From: Candidatus Sungiibacteriota bacterium
GTDB lineage: Bacteria; Patescibacteriota; Minisyncoccia; Sungbacterales; HO2-52-23
Direction: 5' to 3'
Length of the DNA stretch: 64,000 bases
NCBI GenBank assembly: GCA_016196115.1
Contig: JACPYI010000002.1
Location: 35,976 to 99,975 of the forward strand
Each line of letters starts with the position of its first letter. The stretch's first letter is position 1. The translations under genes and the position numbers were made by a program. The notes under the pieces are model-generated. The model had not been told where the DNA came from and searched no databases. It saw nothing but the letters and a program-made list of their open reading frames with translations. This document shows, one piece after another, positions 8,420 to 61,447 of the stretch.

Positions 8420-9529
8420 TTAGGTATACTTTGATATGTTTAATAGTACGCCGATGCTCGCCAAAGTTATGACCAGCGACGTTCCCCCGTAGCTTACCAT
8501 AGGAAGGGGTATGCCGGTAAGCGGAAGTAGGCCGGAGATCGCGGCCATGTTGATAAATACCTGCGCCATGATGCCGACCGAGATTCCTGCCCCAAGCAGT
8601 TTGCCGAATACGTCAGGCGCGCGTCTGGCGATGAAGATGCCGCGCCAAAAAAACGTCGCAAAAAGCCCCAGCAACAGGCACACGCCGACCAGTCCCGTCT
8701 CTTCCGCGAAAATCGCGAAAATGGAATCCCCCATTGGTTCGGGCAGATACGAGTATTTCTGCAAACTTTTCCCGAACCCAAGGCCCCAGAATCCTCCCGA
8801 GCCGATGCCGATAAACGCCTGATTGATCTGGTACCCGATTCCTTTCGGATCGGTCTGCGGATCGAGAAAAACAAGAATGCGCTGCAGGCGGTACGGAGCA
8901 ATTTGAACGACCAGATAGAGCATAACCAGTCCAAGAACTATGAGCATGCCGATTTGCGAGACCTTCCCGCCGCCTAAAAAATACATGATCCCCGCGGTGG
9001 CCACAACCACGCCGAGCGTGCCGATGTCCGGCTGCATGACCAGAAAAATCCCGATGATCGCGAGCATGAGCGAGAACGGGATCATGCCGTACGACACGCT
9101 CTTGATCTCTTTTCTCCGCGCATCAAGCCAGCTTGCCAGATATACGAGAAACGAAAACTTGAGCACTTCGGACGGCTGAAAACTGAATCCTCCCGCTTGC
9201 AGCCACCGGCGCGCACCGCCGGCAACATAGCTGAAATGGGGGATGAAAAGAAGCGCTGAGAGCAGAAACGAGAGTATCATGAGCGGCAGCGCCAGCCGTT
9301 TCCATATCCGGTACGGCATCCATTGGGTGAGCGCAAGCGCTATTCCTCCAAGAATTCCTCCATACAAAAATTGCCGCAGCGTGTAGAAGTAGATATTCCC
9401 AAAATTCTTTTGCGACATCACCATGGACGCCGAAGCCAGAATCAAAAGCCCCGCGACCAAGATCGCAAGCGTGAGAAAGAGCATGGGTCTATCGAGTCGG
9501 TGAGGCATTCCGTAGTTTCCGCAACCCAA
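8420..9529 (-). CDS. ftsW: FtsW/RodA/SpoVE family peptidoglycan polymerase
   Basis: Polytopic membrane protein with the conserved C-terminal SEED-family region (PLPMVSYGGTSLV). Confidence 0.85.
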   Translation of the reverse strand: MGCGNYGMPHRLDRPMLFLTLAILVAGLLILASASMVMSQKNFGNIYFYTLRQFLYGGILGGIALALTQWMPYRIWKRLALPLMILSFLLSALLFIPHFSYVAGGARRWLQAGGFSFQPSEVLKFSFLVYLASWLDARRKEIKSVSYGMIPFSLMLAIIGIFLVMQPDIGTLGVVVATAGIMYFLGGGKVSQIGMLIVLGLVMLYLVVQIAPYRLQRILVFLDPQTDPKGIGYQINQAFIGIGSGGFWGLGFGKSLQKYSYLPEPMGDSIFAIFAEETGLVGVCLLLGLFATFFWRGIFIARRAPDVFGKLLGAGISVGIMAQVFINMAAISGLLPLTGIPLPMVSYGGTSLVITLASIGVLLNISKYT

Positions 9530-9588
9530 TCACTTTTTTGCTTAAGTTAAACTTCGTTTAAAAGTCGCAAAAAAAGTGATTGGGTTGC
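9521..9588. repeat. long perfect hairpin (21-bp stem, inner 6-bp stem with TTCG loop) in the ftsW-murD spacer; member of a hairpin repeat family
   Basis: gcaacccaatcacttttttgc [ttaagttaaacttcgtttaaaagtc] gcaaaaaaagtgattgggttgc. Shares a near-identical core with the element at 52679-52745. Confidence 0.6.
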
Positions 9589-13863: not shown

Positions 13864-15912
13864 ATGAGTAGCAAGGCGCATGCCAAACACGAATTGCTGA
13901 TTGCATCGGTCACTCCCCAAAATCTTGAACGGGGCGTTTTGTGGTTTTCGGAGAATCATGGGGCCATAAAGAAGGCGAGTGCGAGCCATATATGGTGGCA
14001 GAAGAATAGTATGATGGTGGAAGAGAGTTTGGTGATAAAGCCCTCGGAACTGATCAGGCGCATGACCGATATGGGGTATGAGCGCAGCCAAACAGTGGGC
14101 GGCAAGGGCCTCGTGAGCATGCGTGGAGGCATTATCGAAATCTGGCCGGTCAACACCGCGGCTCCGTATCTGATCGAGTTCGACGGAAACGTCATCTCGG
14201 AAATTTTGCCGCGGCAAAAAACCGAAGAGAGATCGAAACCGAAATTGAGCCAAAGGCACGCAATCGAGAAACTTCCCGCGGGAAGTTATGTCGTACACAT
14301 CGACCATGGCATTGGCATTTTCCGTGGCACCGGACCCGCCATTAAAAATTTAAATTTACTGGGCTTCTCTAAGATAGAATATGCGGCACCCGGTCCCGGC
14401 CGCGCACCGGACATGTTATATGTGCCGATCGGTCAAAAAGACCGGCTCTTGCCGTACGTTGGGTTCGAGATGCCGCGCGTCCATCGTCTGGGCGGCAGCG
14501 TGTGGGAGAAAACCAAACGCAAAGTCAAAGAGGAAACCGAGAAACTGGCGCGTGAACTTCTGGAGCTCTACGCGAAGCGCCACGTGGTCGAACGACCTCC
14601 GCATATGGGCGATGCCGGACTTGAGCAAGAATTGATTGCGCGGTTTCCGTTTCAGGAAACGACTGATCAGCTCAAAGCGGAGGAAGAGATCATGCACGAT
14701 CTTGCGCGCACCCGGCCCATGGACAGGATTCTGTGCGGAGATGTCGGATTCGGCAAAACCGAGATCGCGATCCGCGCGGCGCTCCGCGTGATCGCATCGG
14801 AAAAACAGGTGACGCTGCTCGCTCCCACGACCGTGCTCGCCGCGCAGCACGAACGCACGCTCAAAGAGCGTTTCGCAAACACCGCGATCTCCGTGGGCAT
14901 GCTGTCGCGACTTACTTCCCAACACGAAGAAGGAAGGACTCTGCACGGGCTCGCAACCGGAACCGTTGACTGCATAGTCGGCACGCACCGCCTGCTCTCA
15001 AAAGATATTACGTTCAAAAATCTTGGACTGGTCATCATAGATGAGGAACAGCGCTTCGGCGTCAAGCAGAAAGAAGCGCTCAAAAATCTCCGCGCCGAGG
15101 TAGACGTGCTCTCGCTCTCCGCAACCCCGATCCCCCGCACACTGCAGTTGACGTTGGCGCACGTCCGGGATATCTCGTTTCTCAAGACCCCTCCGCCCGA
15201 CCGCCTTGCCATCCATACTTTTGTCCTCCCGTATACGCAAAAGACCATCGCACAGGCCCTGCGTCGCGAGCTTGAACGAGGCGGCCAGATCTATTTTCTC
15301 CATAACCGCATCGAAACCATCGGTGCCGTCAAACAGAAACTGGAAAAACTGCTTCAGAAAGTACCGCTCCGACAAAAGCGAGAGGCGGGTATGCTTGAGC
15401 GTTTTAGCGAAGCGTCTAGCGAAAGCACGCCCGCCTCTCGCTTACCCACGAGCAAGCCGCGAATCGGCGTGATGCACGGGCGCATGAGAGAGCACGAGAT
15501 GATCAAAATCATGGATGAATTCCGCAACAAAGAAATCGATATTCTGCTCGCGACTACGATCATCGAGAACGGACTCGATATCTCGTCCGCAAACACGCTC
15601 ATCGTGGACGATGCGACTCTGATCGGCCTGGCCGAAGCCCACCAACTGCGCGGCCGCGTAGGCAGGAGCGCGGCCCAGGCATTCGCATACTTTTTCTACA
15701 AGCCGCGCCGCATGACTGAAAAAGCCGCAGACCGCCTCCAAGCCCTGCAGGATTACGCCGACCTCGGCTCCGGATACGACATCGCCCTCCGCGACCTCGA
15801 AATCCGCGGCGCCGGAAACATCCTGGGCCGCGAGCAATCCGGCACGATCAACAAAGTTGGTCTCAATCTGTATTATCAAATGCTTGCGGAGGCGATTGAC
15901 CTCCTTCGCTAA
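13864..15912 (+). CDS. mfd: transcription-repair coupling factor, short form (RID plus translocase core; lacks UvrB-homology D1/D2 and C-terminal D7)
   Basis: CarD/TRCF RID motif (GSYVVHIDHGIGIFRG). Superfamily-2 helicase motifs DEEQRFGV, SATPIPRTL and HQLRGRVGR. 682 aa versus about 1150 aa for canonical Mfd. Confidence 0.8.
   Translation: MSSKAHAKHELLIASVTPQNLERGVLWFSENHGAIKKASASHIWWQKNSMMVEESLVIKPSELIRRMTDMGYERSQTVGGKGLVSMRGGIIEIWPVNTAAPYLIEFDGNVISEILPRQKTEERSKPKLSQRHAIEKLPAGSYVVHIDHGIGIFRGTGPAIKNLNLLGFSKIEYAAPGPGRAPDMLYVPIGQKDRLLPYVGFEMPRVHRLGGSVWEKTKRKVKEETEKLARELLELYAKRHVVERPPHMGDAGLEQELIARFPFQETTDQLKAEEEIMHDLARTRPMDRILCGDVGFGKTEIAIRAALRVIASEKQVTLLAPTTVLAAQHERTLKERFANTAISVGMLSRLTSQHEEGRTLHGLATGTVDCIVGTHRLLSKDITFKNLGLVIIDEEQRFGVKQKEALKNLRAEVDVLSLSATPIPRTLQLTLAHVRDISFLKTPPPDRLAIHTFVLPYTQKTIAQALRRELERGGQIYFLHNRIETIGAVKQKLEKLLQKVPLRQKREAGMLERFSEASSESTPASRLPTSKPRIGVMHGRMREHEMIKIMDEFRNKEIDILLATTIIENGLDISSANTLIVDDATLIGLAEAHQLRGRVGRSAAQAFAYFFYKPRRMTEKAADRLQALQDYADLGSGYDIALRDLEIRGAGNILGREQSGTINKVGLNLYYQMLAEAIDLLR
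15378..15441. repeat. palindromic element (12-bp perfect inverted repeat gcgagaggcggg / cccgcctctcgc) encoding an in-frame insertion of about 30 aa inside mfd
   Basis: The arms flank a 40-nt loop. The encoded segment LRQKREAGMLERFSEASSESTPASRLPTSK has no counterpart between the conserved VP and RIxxxHGxM positions of canonical Mfd. Confidence 0.55.
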
Positions 15913-21263: not shown

Positions 21264-21348
21264 GTCATGCCCGTGAAAACGGGCATCCAGAAATATGAGC
21301 ATCAGAGCCAAAATCAACATACTGGATTCCCGCGTAAGCGGGAATGAC
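21264..21348. repeat. double-hairpin MITE-like repeat, copy A (H1 variant with compensatory stem changes, long spacer, H2)
   Basis: gtcatGcccgtgaaaacgggCatccag ... ctggattcccgcgtaagcgggaatgac. In H1, t>g and a>c changes keep the stem paired. Confidence 0.7.
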
Positions 21349-21398: not shown

Positions 21399-22442
21399 CT
21401 ACATCCCCTGCTCTCTAATCATTTTGGAGAGGATGCCGCGCAGTTCTTCTTCGGAGAAGAATTCGACTACGATCTTGCCGCGCTCGCCCATGCGCTGGAG
21501 CTGGACTTTGGTGCCGAGCTGTTCCTGGAGGCGGTTTTGCCAGTCGCGGAGTTCCGGGTCCTGGACGGAGTAGCCGGGGCGTTTGCGGGGGGTGAGGGTT
21601 TTGCCCCCTACCTGGCGGGCGTGGGCCTCGGCGGCGCGCACGCTCATATTGTCGCTCATGATGTCGCGGTAGACCTGGAGCTGCTTGAGTTGGTCGTCTC
21701 CGGCCATGAGAATGGCGCGGGCATGGCCTTCGGTAACGGCGCCGGTGTTGAGAGCGGTCTGGACTTCAGCGGGCAGGGACAAAAGGCGCAGCACGTTTGC
21801 CACGGCTTCGCGCGATTTACCGATGCGCACGGCGATCTCCCGCTGCACCAGGTGGAATTCGTCGATCAGCTGCTTGTAGGCGCGGGCGCGTTCGATCGCG
21901 TTTAAATCCTCGCGCTGCACATTTTCAATGATGGCAAGCTCGAGGCGCACGCGATCGTCCGGCACGCCGCGGCGGATAATCGCCGGGATTTGCGAAAGAC
22001 CCGCCAGCTTTGACGCCCGCCATCTGCGCTCGCCTGCGATCAGCTGGTAGCGGACTTCGAGTCCGGCTGGCGTATCAATCTCCCGTTTGGTCACGAGGAT
22101 CGGCTGCAGCACCCCGTGCTCGCGGATGGAGCGCGCCAGATCCTGCAATGCTTCCTCGTTGAATTCGCGGCGCGGCTGAAACGGATTGGGTTCTATTTTT
22201 TCAAGCTCGATCCAAAACACGGCCTCGCCTCTGCGGGGCGTGAAGTGATCTTCATAGCTTCGCGCGAGCGGGGCGGAGGTGCCGGCTCCTACCGTCGGAG
22301 TACCGGTCGGAGGTTCGACTTCAGGGAGTACCGGAGGCGCGGGAATCTCGTTTGCGGGATCAAGCGCCACAGGTTCATTCTGCGTGCGGTCGGGAATCAG
22401 GGATTCGAGTCCTTTGCCTAGAGGATCCAAAAAAATTTTCAA
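21399..22442 (-). CDS. parB: chromosome partitioning protein ParB/Spo0J with Pro-rich N-terminal linker
   Basis: LGKGLESLIP N-terminal motif. ParB box (LQPILV, IAGERRWRA) and HTH region. Confidence 0.85.
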   Translation of the reverse strand: MKIFLDPLGKGLESLIPDRTQNEPVALDPANEIPAPPVLPEVEPPTGTPTVGAGTSAPLARSYEDHFTPRRGEAVFWIELEKIEPNPFQPRREFNEEALQDLARSIREHGVLQPILVTKREIDTPAGLEVRYQLIAGERRWRASKLAGLSQIPAIIRRGVPDDRVRLELAIIENVQREDLNAIERARAYKQLIDEFHLVQREIAVRIGKSREAVANVLRLLSLPAEVQTALNTGAVTEGHARAILMAGDDQLKQLQVYRDIMSDNMSVRAAEAHARQVGGKTLTPRKRPGYSVQDPELRDWQNRLQEQLGTKVQLQRMGERGKIVVEFFSEEELRGILSKMIREQGM

Positions 22443-22470
22443 TTTTCAATTTTCAATTTTCAAACAAAGA
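22438..22470. repeat. tandem heptamer array (attttca x4) overlapping the parB start codon, followed by inverted TTGAAAAT-like copies in the parA-parB spacer
   Basis: aaattttcaattttcaattttcaattttcaaac, then gaattga / aattgaaaatt in the spacer. Confidence 0.5.
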
Positions 22471-22519
22471 ATTTGAGAATTGAATCATTGGAAATTGATT
22501 AAAAATTATAAATTGAAAA

Positions 22520-23296
22520 TTAAGCTACCCGAATTTCCTCTATGCGCAAAATTTCCTCGGCCAATCGCCGGTATGCTTTGGCGCCGTGGCTGTAGGGGTC
22601 GTAGTGCAAAATGGTCTTGCCGTATGACGGGGCTTCGGCCAAGCTGATGTTTCGCGGGATCACGGTCTCGAACACATATCCGGGAAATTTACGCTTGATC
22701 TCTTTGGCGACCGCGCGGTGCAGGCGTGATTTGCGATCGTACATCGTGAGCAGGGCGCCCATGACGCCGACGCGGGTTTTGAGATTTGCGTTGATCAGCC
22801 GGATCGTGTGCAGGAGATCGGCAAGCCCCTCAAGCGCGTAATACTCGCACTGGCTGGGAATAATGATCTTTTGCGCCGCGACCAGCGCGTTGATCGTGAG
22901 CAGTCCTAAACTGGGCGGCGAATCAATGACAATGAAATCATATCCTTTGCGAACCTGCTCAAGCGCTTCTTTCAGTTTATACTCACGCCTCGGCATGTCA
23001 ACCAGTTCCACGCCCGCTCCGGCAAGCGCAGGAGTGGCGGGCAAAATATCCACCCCCAAAATTCCGGTTTTCCTGATCGCCTCTTTCACGTCCGCTTTGC
23101 CGATGAGCGCATGGTACACCGAAATCTCGATGCGCTTGGAGTTGAGCCCCATGCCCGAGGTCGCGTTTGCCTGCGGATCAAAATCCACCAGCAGCACTTT
23201 CTGTCCGAGCGCAGCCAAGAACGCCGCAAGGTTGGTGCTCGACGTGCTCTTGCCCACCCCACCTTTTTGATTGCAAAGCGTAATAATGCGCGCCAT
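22520..23296 (-). CDS. parA: ParA/Soj family partition ATPase
   Basis: Deviant Walker A MARIITLCNQKGGVGKSTSSTNLAA. Confidence 0.9.
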   Translation of the reverse strand: MARIITLCNQKGGVGKSTSSTNLAAFLAALGQKVLLVDFDPQANATSGMGLNSKRIEISVYHALIGKADVKEAIRKTGILGVDILPATPALAGAGVELVDMPRREYKLKEALEQVRKGYDFIVIDSPPSLGLLTINALVAAQKIIIPSQCEYYALEGLADLLHTIRLINANLKTRVGVMGALLTMYDRKSRLHRAVAKEIKRKFPGYVFETVIPRNISLAEAPSYGKTILHYDPYSHGAKAYRRLAEEILRIEEIRVA

Positions 23297-40664: not shown

Positions 40665-42621
40665 CTATTTCACCAGCCATTCTTTTGGGTTGGCCGGGGT
40701 GTCGTTTTTGAGTTCGATGGTCAGGGAACCGATGTGTTGCTCGACCGGTTGCCCGGTGAAACTATCGATGCCGATCAGTTTGACATCTCTGACCAGTTCG
40801 ATAATCTTTCCGCGGTCGAACTCCGACGGCGTGATGGATGCCTGGAAGGCGGCGGTAAGCGCGGGCGAAAAGATACCGGTGCCGGCGGGTATCTCCCCGA
40901 TGTTCCATATCAGATCCTGGGTACCGCGATCAAACGTCATTCGGGCGCTTTGCGGAAATGTTTTTTCTTCCCAATGCACATGGCTCGGCAGTGTAGTGCT
41001 TACCACGACATTCTGCAGCGTATTGGAAAAACTTCGCGCCTCGAGCAGGATTGTATACGTCGTTTTCTTGCCGACTTCCGGCGGCAGCGGTCCGCTGTTC
41101 AAAATCGGAGACGCGTGATACACGGCTCTGCCCGCAAACACGACATGCGAGCGTACTTTGAGGCGCAGCGCGTCGTTCGCGGTCAGATCAGTCCCGGCGA
41201 GTTCGCTTGGCTGCTCGCCTGCTTCAATGTGCGCGCTTATTCCGGCAGCCAGATTTTTTTCGCCGGCATTGCGAAGTATGGGTGTCTTTCGCAAATCCAC
41301 GAGGATGCTCACCTGGCCGCCCTGCCCCGGGGCAAGCTCGCGAAGCCCGGTCACGTTTGCCGGCGCCCAGATCAGGGTGCGGGTCTGGCCGTCATAGATC
41401 CCTGCATCCTGAATCCGCAGCGACGGAAAATCATATATCCGATACTCACCGCGCTCGAATCGCGTCAGCGTATCCAATGCTCCCGATGCGTTAAAAAATT
41501 CTTCAAGCGACGCGCGGATCGTGATATTTTTGAGCAGCGACAACGTATTATTCCGATATCGCAGGGTGAATGCCACACTGTCGCCTTCTCCGACCACGCC
41601 CTCGCGTTTGTCATTGAAAAACGCCTGAACGGAAAGCGGCGCCGCGGCAATGCGTGTCTCCGAACTGGCCTCGCTGTAGATCATAAACTCTTCATTCGCT
41701 CCATTGAATACGCCAAGCATGCCGTGGAATGCCTTGATGTCGCCGTCCTGCCCCGAGAGGGTACCGTGGATCGTGATGTCGCCGCCGGCTCCGGGCGAAA
41801 GCGTACCGAGATCCCAGAGCATCGTGTCTTTGGCCGGCGCGGGATCGGCGGAAGCGAACGAGAAGCCGTCCGGATACTCGAGCCGGAGCGACATGTGCTC
41901 GAATGGAAGCCGGGCACTGGACACATAATGCACTTTTACGTCTACGTTCTGCCCGCGGCTCACGGTCTGGGGCACTTCCCACGAGACCGCCAGGGGCACG
42001 CTTGCGACCAGAAGCGTTTCCGCGGCACGGGTCGTAAAGCGCGCCTGGAGATTTTGCGGGCGGTACAGAAGCACCGCTTCTATGTTTTTCTGGTCCCCTT
42101 CTTTGCCGAAGATCCGGGTGGTGATTTCGACGACGCGTTCCTCGTCCGGCTTGAGATCGTCAAGTTTTTCAACGAACCGCGACGGCACCACCGTTTCCTG
42201 GTTGCCCTGTTGGATCACGGACCCGGGAGGCAGCACGAGTGCCAATTCAACATCCTGCACGGTCGTATGAGACGTGTTATGCATGCTGACCGGAATCGTG
42301 CGCGCCTCGCCCGATATGAGCGGCCCCTGATCATGCAAAGCCAAGCGTACCTCTTGCCCGCGCGTGCCAAGATACAGGAATAAAAACGTTGCCATACCAA
42401 TGATCAGAACCAATATGAATCCGCCCAGAATAGGCCAGAAAAGCTTGCGCTCAAAAAGGCTCTGTTTTTGGACCGGAGGCGCGTATCCGGGCTCCTCCCA
42501 TGAGGCCTGCGGGCGGCGCATGGTCTCGGGAAAATGCTCGCGATATTGCATCCGCCTCTTCAACTCTTCATCCGAACCCGACTCGTATAATTTTTTTTGC
42601 AAATCTTCGACTTTGGTCATA
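40665..42621 (-). CDS. large membrane-anchored hypothetical protein with repeated beta-sandwich (DUF11/CARDB-like) modules
   Basis: N-terminal TM helix then about 550 aa of repetitive extracellular sequence. The start is taken at MTKVEDLQKK, because the longer listed ORF would run into the upstream hairpin element. Confidence 0.55.
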
Positions 42622-42643
42622 CACCTTAACTTATTTTTACCAA

Positions 42644-42712
42644 GCAAGAAAGGCAAGTGCTTTAAGCGGCTTAGCGTACTCGCGTCAAAGCGTAAGCACT
42701 TGCCTTTCTTGC
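42644..42712. repeat. long perfect hairpin (19-bp stem, 31-nt loop) between recO stop and the next gene start
   Basis: gcaagaaaggcaagtgctt ... aagcacttgcctttcttgc. Confidence 0.6.
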
Positions 42713-42716
42713 TCCT

Positions 42717-43163
42717 CTACAAATGTAATCCCAGAAACGGCGCGAAACGATCCGCAAACCTCCGGAACACTTCTTCTGAAAATTCCCGTTCATCGAGCAG
42801 CAGCATGCTTTCAAGCAAAAGCTCCCACAGCGCGGCGTCTTTTTGTCCGGGAAACGAGCGTTCGTTCATGAGCGCCGCAATCCGGAGCGCCGCAAAGAGC
42901 TTTTCGGGATTTTGCCGCATGCCCTCCCAAAACCGCGTCATGGTCGCATGCGTCAGGCGCTCGCCGCGCTTGCCTAAAACAAATGTCACGCGCACCATGC
43001 TTAATGGCTCAAGATGGCCCTTGAGCTTCGCGCCTTCCTTTTTTACGCTTTGCGCCCGGCCGCGGATTTTCCCGAATTCTTTGGTATAAATGTCGTACAG
43101 CGCGTCATATTCGCCGTATGAAGTTTTATTCAATACGATTCCTTCTGTGGTGTGATATTCCAT
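42717..43163 (-). CDS. recO: DNA repair protein RecO, N-terminal OB-fold domain only
   Basis: EGIVLNKTSYGEYDALYDIYTKEFGKIRGRAQSVKK matches the RecO N-domain. At 148 aa it lacks the C-terminal Zn-finger domain. Confidence 0.65.
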   Translation of the reverse strand: MEYHTTEGIVLNKTSYGEYDALYDIYTKEFGKIRGRAQSVKKEGAKLKGHLEPLSMVRVTFVLGKRGERLTHATMTRFWEGMRQNPEKLFAALRIAALMNERSFPGQKDAALWELLLESMLLLDEREFSEEVFRRFADRFAPFLGLHL

Positions 43164-43170
43164 TCAGCAT

Positions 43171-43237
43171 GTCATTCCCGACTTGATCGGGAATCCAGTT
43201 CTTTACCATTCCGGATTCCCGCTTTCGCGGGAATGAC
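43171..43237. repeat. double-hairpin repeat family, copy B, 7 nt upstream of recO ATG
   Basis: gtcattcccgacttgatcgggaatccag ttctttaccattc cggattcccgctttcgcgggaatgac. Confidence 0.7.
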
Positions 43238-47454: not shown

Positions 47455-47517
47455 ATGGTCTTGAGTATACCAGAATGATCTGAAAACGCACGCGAGGTTA
47501 TCAACATGCTTCGTATT

Positions 47518-47557
47518 CCACTAAGCAAAATAGACGGCCGTCTATTTTGCTTAGTGG
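47518..47557. repeat. 40-bp perfect palindrome (20-bp arms, no loop) immediately after xseB stop
   Basis: ccactaagcaaaatagacgg|ccgtctattttgcttagtgg. Confidence 0.6.
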
Positions 47558-47559
47558 AG

Positions 47560-47778
47560 CTACTCGGCGCTTTCTTCCGCGTCCTCTTCAATCTCCTTTT
47601 TCACCTCTTCAAACTCGTTCTCGATCTGTTTGAGCCGTTCCCGGGCGGTCTTGATCAGACGCGCGCCCTCGCGCACTTTTTCAAGCCCGGCTTCCACATC
47701 CACTTCTTTCTGCTTCTCGAACCAGTTCACGATCTCCTCGAGTTTTTTCAGCGACTCATTGATATTTGTTTTGGCCAT
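47560..47778 (-). CDS. xseB: exodeoxyribonuclease VII small subunit
   Basis: 72 aa helical protein SLKKLEEIVNWFEKQ...LEKVREGARLIKTARERL fits the XseB family. Confidence 0.8.
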   Translation of the reverse strand: MAKTNINESLKKLEEIVNWFEKQKEVDVEAGLEKVREGARLIKTARERLKQIENEFEEVKKEIEEDAEESAE

Positions 47779-47789
47779 CCGGTTGTCCT

Positions 47790-47889
47790 GTCATTCCCGC
47801 GTAAGCGGGAATCCAGATCTGACAGTCGCTGGATTCCCGACCCACGCTCCGCCAAAGGCTTCGGCGAGGCGAGTCAAGTCGGGAATGAC
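47790..47889. repeat. double-hairpin repeat family, copy C, in the xseA-xseB spacer (H2 loop carries a 36-nt insertion)
   Basis: gtcattcccgcgtaagcgggaatccag atctgacagtcg ctggattcccga[ccacgctccgccaaaggcttcggcgaggcgagtcaa]gtcgggaatgac. On the coding strand the element end supplies AGGA 7 nt before the xseB ATG. Confidence 0.75.
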
Positions 47890-47903
47890 AAAATACATGC
47901 GTC

Positions 47904-52678: not shown

Positions 52679-52745
52679 GCAAGTCGGTTGCTTTTTTGCG
52701 ACTTTTAAAGGCAGCTTAACGTAAGCAAAAAAGTGACCGACTTGC
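52679..52745. repeat. long hairpin (21-bp stem with two T.G/G.T wobble positions); inverted copy of the 9521-9588 element core
   Basis: gcaagtcggttgcttttttgc [gacttttaaaggcagcttaacgtaa] gcaaaaaagtgaccgacttgc. The reverse-complemented loop matches the 9542-9566 loop at 21 of 25 positions. Confidence 0.6.
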
Positions 52746-61380: not shown

Positions 61381-61447
61381 GTCATTCCCGCGAACGCGGG
61401 AATCCAGAGTCAATATGTCCTGGATTCCCGATCAAGTCGGGAATGAC
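61381..61447. repeat. double-hairpin repeat family, copy D, filling the rpoB-rpoC spacer
   Basis: gtcattcccgcgaacgcgggaatccag agtcaatatgtc ctggattcccgatcaagtcgggaatgac. Coordinates are plus or minus 1. Confidence 0.75.

Follow-up and report, generated by a model that had tools for sequence, protein, structure and literature searches.

In a 64,000-nucleotide stretch of DNA from a Candidatus Sungbacteria bacterium (GenBank assembly GCA_016196115.1, contig JACPYI010000002.1, positions 35,976 to 99,975 of the forward strand; hereafter the window), the gene mfd, which encodes the transcription-repair coupling factor, contains inside its open reading frame (ORF) a DNA palindrome that we call type A. 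The palindrome lies in an in-frame insertion of about 30 residues that is missing from two close relatives, and among the relatives that do hold it the stem stays paired as its sequence changes and the loop occurs in either orientation. Our preferred explanation, to which we give a probability of roughly 0.6, is an event like those known for the palindromic elements of Rickettsia (RPEs), in which short palindromic repeats are tolerated in a permissive loop of Mfd and their arms are kept paired by template switching. The gene, the insert and the parts of the hairpin are as follows, in window coordinates.

13864-15912, plus strand: mfd, short-form transcription-repair coupling factor, 682 aa, with Pfam domains UvrB_inter, CarD_TRCF_RID, DEAD and Helicase_C
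15358-15447, plus strand: inserted segment relative to the empty allele of the related locus L092 (LLH/TSKPRIG), 90 nt or 30 aa (K499-P528), from codon and protein alignments
15376-15396, plus strand: hairpin left arm AAGCGAGAGGCGGGTATGCTT, perfect core 15376-15389
15397-15422, plus strand: hairpin loop, 26 nt, GAGCGTTTTAGCGAAGCGTCTAGCGA, with four AGCG motifs and a central GCGAAGC at 15407-15413
15423-15443, plus strand: hairpin right arm AAGCACGCCCGCCTCTCGCTT, perfect core 15430-15443

The hairpin in mfd

Read directly, the sequence has the 12-mer GCGAGAGGCGGG at 15378-15389 and, 40 nt further on, CCCGCCTCTCGC at 15430-15441, which is the exact reverse complement of the first. This is the perfect 12-bp inverted repeat that a first-pass annotation, made from the letters alone, had described, and it proves to be the core of a longer, 21-bp stem. 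Pairing without mismatch reaches 14 bp (15376-15389 with 15430-15443), and a repeat finder run at 90% complementarity extends the arms to 21 nt (15376-15396 and 15423-15443), enclosing the 26-nt loop and including one U-G pair and one A-C mismatch. The whole hairpin measures 68 nt and has a simple stem-loop architecture. The observation is therefore confirmed, and is stronger than at first described.

The RNA of positions 15365-15455 (91 nt) folds at -48.8 kcal/mol, compared with -27.5 +/- 3.1 kcal/mol for shuffled sequences (z = -6.84, with none of 200 shuffles as good), and the DNA fold of the hairpin stretch gives -25.8 kcal/mol (z = -4.7). In a sliding-window fold of the full 64 kb the hairpin is found among the 13 most stable 80-nt segments, and it alone of these is a single long stem within a long ORF. 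The 12-mer arm has no further occurrence in the window, even with one mismatch allowed.

Known classes of hairpin were also considered. An intrinsic terminator is ruled out, as the sequence 3' of the hairpin, ACCCACGAGC, has no U-tract and a terminator scan made no call over the element. The same holds for an Rfam 15 family: at the gathering threshold the scan of the window gave one tRNA only, and the sub-threshold matches at the hairpin are generic, mostly to miRNA precursors, scoring 18-24 bits against thresholds of 59-95. The element, which starts AAGCGAG / GGCGAG, has no GTAG or CGTC tag of the REP/REPIN kind (the RAYT gene was not searched for genome-wide).

An in-frame insert in the helicase module

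The Mfd of the window is 100% identical to a protein from a Candidatus Sungbacteria metagenome-assembled genome in NCBI, and the window thus belongs to the Candidate Phyla Radiation (CPR). Its best solved relatives are the Mfd proteins of M. smegmatis, M. tuberculosis and E. coli. The window protein, at 682 aa, is short beside the 1148-1254 aa of the solved structures, and in M. smegmatis Mfd only residues ~185-254 and 521-1048 align with it. It therefore lacks much of the UvrB-homology module at the N-terminus and the C-terminal domain; this short form is common to all 120 homologues listed.

The hairpin sits in frame 0 of the ORF and encodes K505-L527; the peptides encoded by the insert include EAGMLER and FSEASSESTPASR. 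When measured against the M. smegmatis Mfd structure 6ac6 the insert comprises 32 aa (residues 498-529), since chain residues 895 and 896 align with query residues 497 and 530 and leave 32 residues unaligned. The same conclusion comes from the distance between the GGQ.YFLHNRI-type motif and HGxM, which is 22 residues in 33 of 33 diverse bacterial mfd loci and 54 in the window. These loci were drawn from a genome-contig scan with an Mfd alignment, which returned 80 mfd loci of unrelated phyla and no Sungbacteria; keyed on universal helicase motifs, the scan is uninformative on the hairpin and was reused for the spacing only. Two further proposals of the first-pass annotation are thereby borne out, namely an in-frame insertion of about 30 aa (30-32 residues, no stop) and its position between residues that are contiguous in canonical Mfd (adjacent residues in 6ac6, constant 22-residue spacing).

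The Pfam Helicase_C match spans model positions 39-109 only, at residues 531-602, so the insert splits the start of that domain from its remainder. In an AlphaFold2 model computed from a 34-sequence alignment the insert is placed between helix 483-498 and strand 534-537. The model's confidence (pLDDT) has block means of 45-50 over residues 501-530 and falls below 50 at 502-504 and 510-528, and the segment is mostly coil, its sole regular element being a short low-confidence helix at 504-511. The helicase motifs of the protein are intact, and with this placement the insert is judged to lie at the surface, away from the catalytic motifs. Whichever way round the element lies, the reading frame used by mfd stays open; counted over all six frames, four are open.

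Presence and absence among relatives

Alignment of Mfd orthologues from close relatives, a check proposed in the first-pass annotation, shows that the 30-aa segment is missing in L004 and L092, which are 85% and 83% identical to the window Mfd in amino acids over ungapped columns. At the DNA level both lack the insert and read straight through the junction (LLQR/GRIG in L004, LLH/TSKPRIG in L092). Three other relatives, L001, L003 and L091, hold the same element at the same mfd junction. The hairpin is thus found in four independent assemblies from NCBI and JGI, and an additional Logan contig carries the L001 copy. Length at this site varies greatly over the 121 Sungbacteria-type Mfd sequences, of which 54 hold at most 8 residues and the others 9-53 unrelated residues.

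The neighbour-joining tree of Mfd mixes carriers and empty alleles (P0007 is sister to P0002 and P0004 to P0003), and the empty L004 and L092 are the nearest neighbours of the type A carriers. The two loop orientations described below also interleave on this tree, and the interleaving implies at least two losses, or several gains, together with at least one or two flips. The first-pass annotation had named protein-level conservation across diverse Mfd sequences as the mark of an ancestral loop; what we find instead are empty sites, unrelated residues and peptides that depend on the orientation of the element.

Paired stems and inverted loops

The three orthologous copies can be compared part by part with that of the window.

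L001 copy: left arm GAGCGAGACGGGAATGTGCTT, loop GAGCGTTTTAGCGAAGCGTCTAACGA, right arm AAGCACATTCCCGTCTCGCTC
L003 copy: left arm GGCGAGATAGGGAGGTGCTT, loop TCGCTAGACGCTTCGCTAAAACGCTC, right arm AAGCACCTCCCTATCTCGCC
L091 copy: left arm GGCGAAACAGGGATGTGCTT, loop TCACTGGACGCTTCGCTAAAACGTTC, right arm AAGCACATCCCTGTTTCGCC

Their stems are perfect over 20-21 bp. Across the four copies 98.8% of stem cells are paired, and double-sided change has taken place at 9 of the 21 pairs; one pair shows a one-sided G-U change in one sequence, and the sole unpaired cell is the A-C mismatch of the window. These pairing values were reached by none of 500 shuffles, and slid controls pair at 35-55% only.

Reverse-complementing the window loop gives exactly the loop of L003, and that of L091 is likewise inverted, as is clear from a covariance model that scores both copies at 95 bits on the minus strand and 44 bits on the plus strand. 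Inversion changes the encoded peptide altogether (ERFSEASSE versus SLDASLKRS). That both orientations give unrelated peptides indicates that the segment is a nucleic-acid palindrome and not a conserved peptide.

The Mfd genes of the carriers share 82-86% identity in protein, 76-80% in DNA and 43-56% at four-fold degenerate sites. Once orientation is normalised, the loop is identical at 22-26 of its 26 positions (85-100%) among the four copies, and the stems at 65-85%. Third-position identity in the flanks of the element is ordinary, on which ground a recent recombination tract was rejected as the source of loop conservation. This conservation is specific to the locus and independent of orientation, and neither neutral drift nor constraint from recognition by a transposase accounts for the pattern.

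Several signatures of template switching are present in these copies, namely arms that are reverse complements, multi-base changes on both sides of the stem, and a loop inverted with its length kept. Template switching would fit the pattern, from which we infer the mechanism, and by this route a palindrome can stay paired without selection.

A diverged copy beside recO

A second, diverged hairpin of this type is present elsewhere in the window.

42643-42713, no strand assigned: second, diverged hairpin copy, arms AGCAAGAAAGGCAAGTGCTT pairing perfectly over 20 bp, loop 31 nt and rich in AGCG

This copy is intergenic: on one side recO ends at 42717, on the other a DUF11 gene starts at 42620, and both genes are on the minus strand. 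The covariance model built from the mfd copies finds it at 42636-42719 with 42.0 bits (E ~6e-8), and the other perfect hairpins of the window score at most 16.5 bits (about 15) with the same model. The stem pattern GC.AGA..GG.A.GTGCTT is common to the mfd and recO copies, and the middle 9 nt of the arms differ between copies. In L096 and L097, where RecO is 80% identical and gene order is kept, recO and the DUF11 gene overlap by ATGA and have no spacer between them; in L095, with a RecO 90% identical, there is no hairpin 3' of recO. The absences at the mfd and recO junctions indicate presence/absence polymorphism at both type A loci. The search for other copies that the first-pass annotation had proposed was therefore rewarded in part: one diverged copy was found in the window, with no second exact 12-mer.

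The recO gene itself (42717-43163, minus strand) encodes a protein of 148 aa in which RecO_N is the one domain detected; homologues in the clade have 125-187 aa.

Other palindrome families in Mfd and the window

The site that type A occupies in mfd is used by other palindromes in other lineages. In L085, L086, L088 and L093 it holds palindromes centred on ACGATCGT (a CGATCG centre), which encode an S[YD]DR motif that recurs in many Mfd homologues, and in L087 it holds nested GTCATTCC/GGAATCC-type palindromes. Mfd in this clade has at least two more indel hot spots. The second site, after DHGIGIF.G (window ~14330-14350), is empty in the window. It is filled by the CGATCG type in L004 (2053-2102), L085 (~1600-1660), L086 and L093, where it encodes NQHF.HDR, and by an in-frame GTCATTCC...GGAATGAC element in L001. 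At a third site, between KGLR and VDVLSLSATP, there is a 24-aa insert in L085 and L093 only. In L085 the CGATCG-type copies at sites 1 and 2 of the one gene are identical at 34 of 40 positions (z ~20), closer than orthologues, implying intragenomic spread or conversion; a palindrome of this type is also found 3' of the mfd stop in the same locus. In the window CGATCG is found 27 times, where base composition would predict ~17, and none of these sites centres a long palindrome, unlike in L085, L086 and L088.

The GTCATTCC...GGAATGAC family is dispersed in the window in the following copies.

43171-43237: full intergenic copy
47790-47889: full intergenic copy
61381-61447: full intergenic copy
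21324-21348: half copy

Its layout is nested (TGTCATTCCCG..CGGGAATCCAG..CTGGATTCCCG..CGGGAATGACA). The copy at 61381-61447 occupies the rpoB-rpoC spacer and another lies just upstream of recO, where in L096 (9918-10001) a variant (CCAGTCATTCCAGACTTAGTCTCC...) fills the spacer.

Further palindromes were noted in the same DNA. Long hairpins at 9521-9588 (murD-ftsW spacer) and 52679-52745 (between an HTH_25 gene and recA) have arms of 19-21 bp and loops of 25-30 nt. Their cores are identical at 41 of 45 positions when one is reverse-complemented, which points to a further hairpin family occurring in both orientations, with compensated differences in the arms. A perfect 42-nt palindrome, TCCACTAAGCAAAATAGACGG/CCGTCTATTTTGCTTAGTGGA, is located at 47517-47558 within a stretch of ~440 nt (47465-47903) that is probably non-coding and also holds a copy of the GTCATTCC family; a 133-aa ORF overlapping this stretch has no Pfam match. 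Finally, an AT-rich block of AATTTTCAATTTTCAATTTTCAA repeats and inverted copies is conserved between the window (22434-22521) and L001 (18116-18204), in the latter case between parA and parB, and may be a partition or origin-type site.

The preferred explanation and what weighs against it

In the explanation that we prefer, type A would be a short, non-coding, non-autonomous palindromic repeat with a stem of ~20 bp and a loop of 26-31 nt. It would have landed in the mfd of an ancestor of a small Candidatus Sungbacteria subclade, in what is probably a loop on the surface of the second RecA-like helicase domain, flanked in Helicase_C by the first helix and the second strand. There a stop-free in-frame insert would be translated as a disordered extra loop of ~30 residues and leave the motor unharmed. 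The element would have persisted because the landing site is permissive, and its flips would have been tolerated because the mfd frame is open in both orientations. The arms would then have evolved in concert through template switching during replication, by which a change in one arm is copied to the other and the loop is at times reverse-complemented, producing species-specific stems that still pair and loops in either orientation. The element has probably been lost since at least twice (in L004 and L092), and in neighbouring lineages the same loop of Mfd appears to have been taken by other palindrome families; the site's hot-spot appearance would come mainly from the scarcity of places in Mfd where insertions are tolerated. 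Sungbacteria genomes would accordingly be seen as hosts to several families of short hairpin repeats, which settle in spacers and occasionally, in-frame, in tolerant loops of Mfd.

We infer, in short, mobility as the origin of the hairpin, template switching as its upkeep, and neutrality for the function of Mfd. The status of type A as a proliferating family is supported less strongly than the in-frame insertion; its sister families are clearly dispersed, and also stand in-frame in mfd. The likeness to RPEs suggested in the first-pass annotation accordingly stands as regards behaviour, and is less firm for the proliferation of type A itself, for which there is one more, diverged copy.

Several observations weigh against this explanation. 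Type A counts two copies in 64 kb, and the covariance model detected no copy in the 122 kb of related loci that lie outside mfd. The loops of the mfd and recO copies align weakly, the two orientations scoring 42.0 and 40.5 bits. The 85-100% identity of the loop beside 43-56% at four-fold sites is not what neutral drift with template switching predicts, and points to constraint at the nucleotide level or to recent exchange. Comparison by eye with the empty alleles showed no direct repeat around the insert of the kind left by target-site duplication, and a Pfam scan of 11 ORFs of the window identified no transposase or mobilising enzyme. Searches of metagenomes and viruses with loop sequences gave chance matches without hairpins: the metagenome search with a loop 20-mer returned two matches in an unrelated gene, with no flanking inverted repeat, and the viral search with an 18-mer one chance match. 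The known carrier L003 was not returned, so these searches do not amount to a test of dispersal. The two metagenomic matches (L089, 1609-1628; L090, 3424-3443) share the exact 20-mer with the loop, in a gene that ends in ...KERFSEASPE, and were judged to be chance. A protein-database search for in-frame copies in other genes, made with four open-frame peptides, gave nothing at E <= 10, the queries being too short to inform.

Alternative explanations

The hairpin could have arisen on the spot, as an inverted duplication made by template switching in an indel-prone stretch of mfd, with the resemblance to the recO copy a coincidence. A single template switch can yield a long perfect stem (PMC8794818), the site is extremely variable in length, the arm 12-mer is unique in the window, and neither a target-site duplication nor a transposase was found, all of which speaks for such an origin. 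However, the empty alleles L004 and L092 contain nothing homologous to either arm, the recO copy shares the stem pattern and scores 42 bits where unrelated perfect hairpins score about 15, and the other palindromes of this site come from families with clear copies elsewhere. We consider a local origin improbable.

Another reading is that the hairpin is a functional cis-element within mfd, kept at the nucleic-acid level with a sequence-specific loop and a stem that matters for structure only. Candidates would be a protein site on double-stranded or cruciform DNA, an RNA hairpin for RNase III or for stability, or a translation pause between the RecA-like domains. One observation in its favour is the near identity of the loop (22-26 of 26) beside four-fold sites at 43-56% and ordinary third positions in the flanks; the survival of stem pairing through nine double changes, the patterned loop with its four AGCG motifs and central GCGAAGC, and the great stability of the hairpin are of the same kind. 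Set against these, the element is missing from the closest relatives, L004 and L092, and unrelated palindromes substitute for it in others. In two of the four carriers the loop is reverse-complemented, so that RNA from the mfd strand shows a different loop sequence, and the loop of the recO paralogue is quite different again. The absence of a U-tract, of a terminator call and of an Rfam match above threshold likewise counts against a function of this type, which we regard as unlikely.

The palindrome might also home: through transformation, and through homologous recombination in the highly conserved flanks within mfd, it would pass horizontally between Sungbacteria that occur together. Its distribution on the Mfd tree is patchy and its loop has diverged far less than synonymous sites; the flanks are well conserved in DNA (directly 3' of the site, for instance, the window and L092 agree at 29 of 29 nt), and the transformation gene dprA adjoins mfd. 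Yet a recent transfer of the element as a whole would not predict the 15-35% difference between the stems of these copies, the flanks show no rise in third-position identity beyond the element, and no nuclease was identified. Homing on this model seems to us very unlikely. An ancestral loop of the Mfd protein, or an artefact of assembly, has nothing but the intact ORF in its favour and is scarcely credible, the former being refuted by the lack of the insert in most homologues and all solved structures and by a peptide that is not conserved, and the latter contradicted by the presence of the hairpin in four independent NCBI and JGI assemblies.

Comparison with known systems

RPEs are palindromic repeats that occur in intergenic regions and in-frame within housekeeping genes, where the host protein is judged able to fold and work with the extra segments (Ogata et al. 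2000 and 2002, as reviewed in PMC10969869). The palindromes described here resemble them in being short, both intergenic and in-frame, translated, and divided among several coexisting families. They differ in that the host of type A belongs to the CPR (Candidatus Sungbacteria), and in that type A measures 68 nt, as opposed to ~100-150 bp for an RPE, and is a simple stem-loop; moreover, several families here reuse one site down to the codon, the loop flips, and the copy number seen is low. The analogy is one of behaviour: we do not claim membership of the RPE family and would expect no sequence relationship.

Perfect stems, compensatory changes of several bases and inverted loops are all known products of template switching (Monttinen and Loytynoja 2022, PMC8794818). 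Hairpins maintained in this way share with type A their near-perfect stems, double-sided changes, scarcity of intermediates and length-preserving loop inversion, but they lie in rRNA and microRNA genes, whereas type A is within a protein-coding ORF. [quoted passage not shown] They are mostly intergenic, often just 3' of genes, and occasionally form in-frame fusions (PMC3733652, PMC10969869). At the scale of the window, however, type A shows no GTAG/CGTC tag, RAYT, parent insertion sequence or target-site duplication, and its arms are variable, unlike the conserved terminal repeats that define a MITE. The hairpin-forming repeats of mitochondrial genomes, such as the RHE of sponges, likewise form short families and have invaded compact genomes time and again, chiefly between genes (PMC2800124); they are borne by an organelle and belong to other sequence families. 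Our literature search found no account of in-frame palindromic insertions in CPR/Patescibacteria in the searchable library.

Significance

It is unlikely, in our judgement, that the hairpin is more than tolerated junk, whether as an element on which selection acts at the nucleic-acid level or as a palindrome that actively homes. If it were, then with a loop that hardly varies in either orientation and a stem that may change so long as it pairs, it would be a recognition site on double-stranded or extruded DNA, for example for a nuclease, a recombinase or a partition-type protein, and the recognising protein would also drive the spread or maintenance of the palindrome. CPR bacteria would then host orientation-independent palindromic elements within essential ORFs.

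On the preferred explanation, with a palindromic repeat tolerated in a permissive loop, in-frame selfish palindromes, classically a peculiarity of Rickettsia, would be extended to the Candidate Phyla Radiation, in a setting of tiny genomes and scarce intergenic space. The Mfd of Sungbacteria offers a natural experiment, since a single site is empty in some relatives and filled in others by palindromes of three unrelated families, with flips, losses and fully compensated stems. This series should be useful for the origin and upkeep of hairpins, where template switching has to be set against selection, and for variation in protein length in streamlined genomes. Such inserts inflate the apparent lineage-specific loops of CPR proteins, and may mislead alignments, structure prediction and orthology calls.

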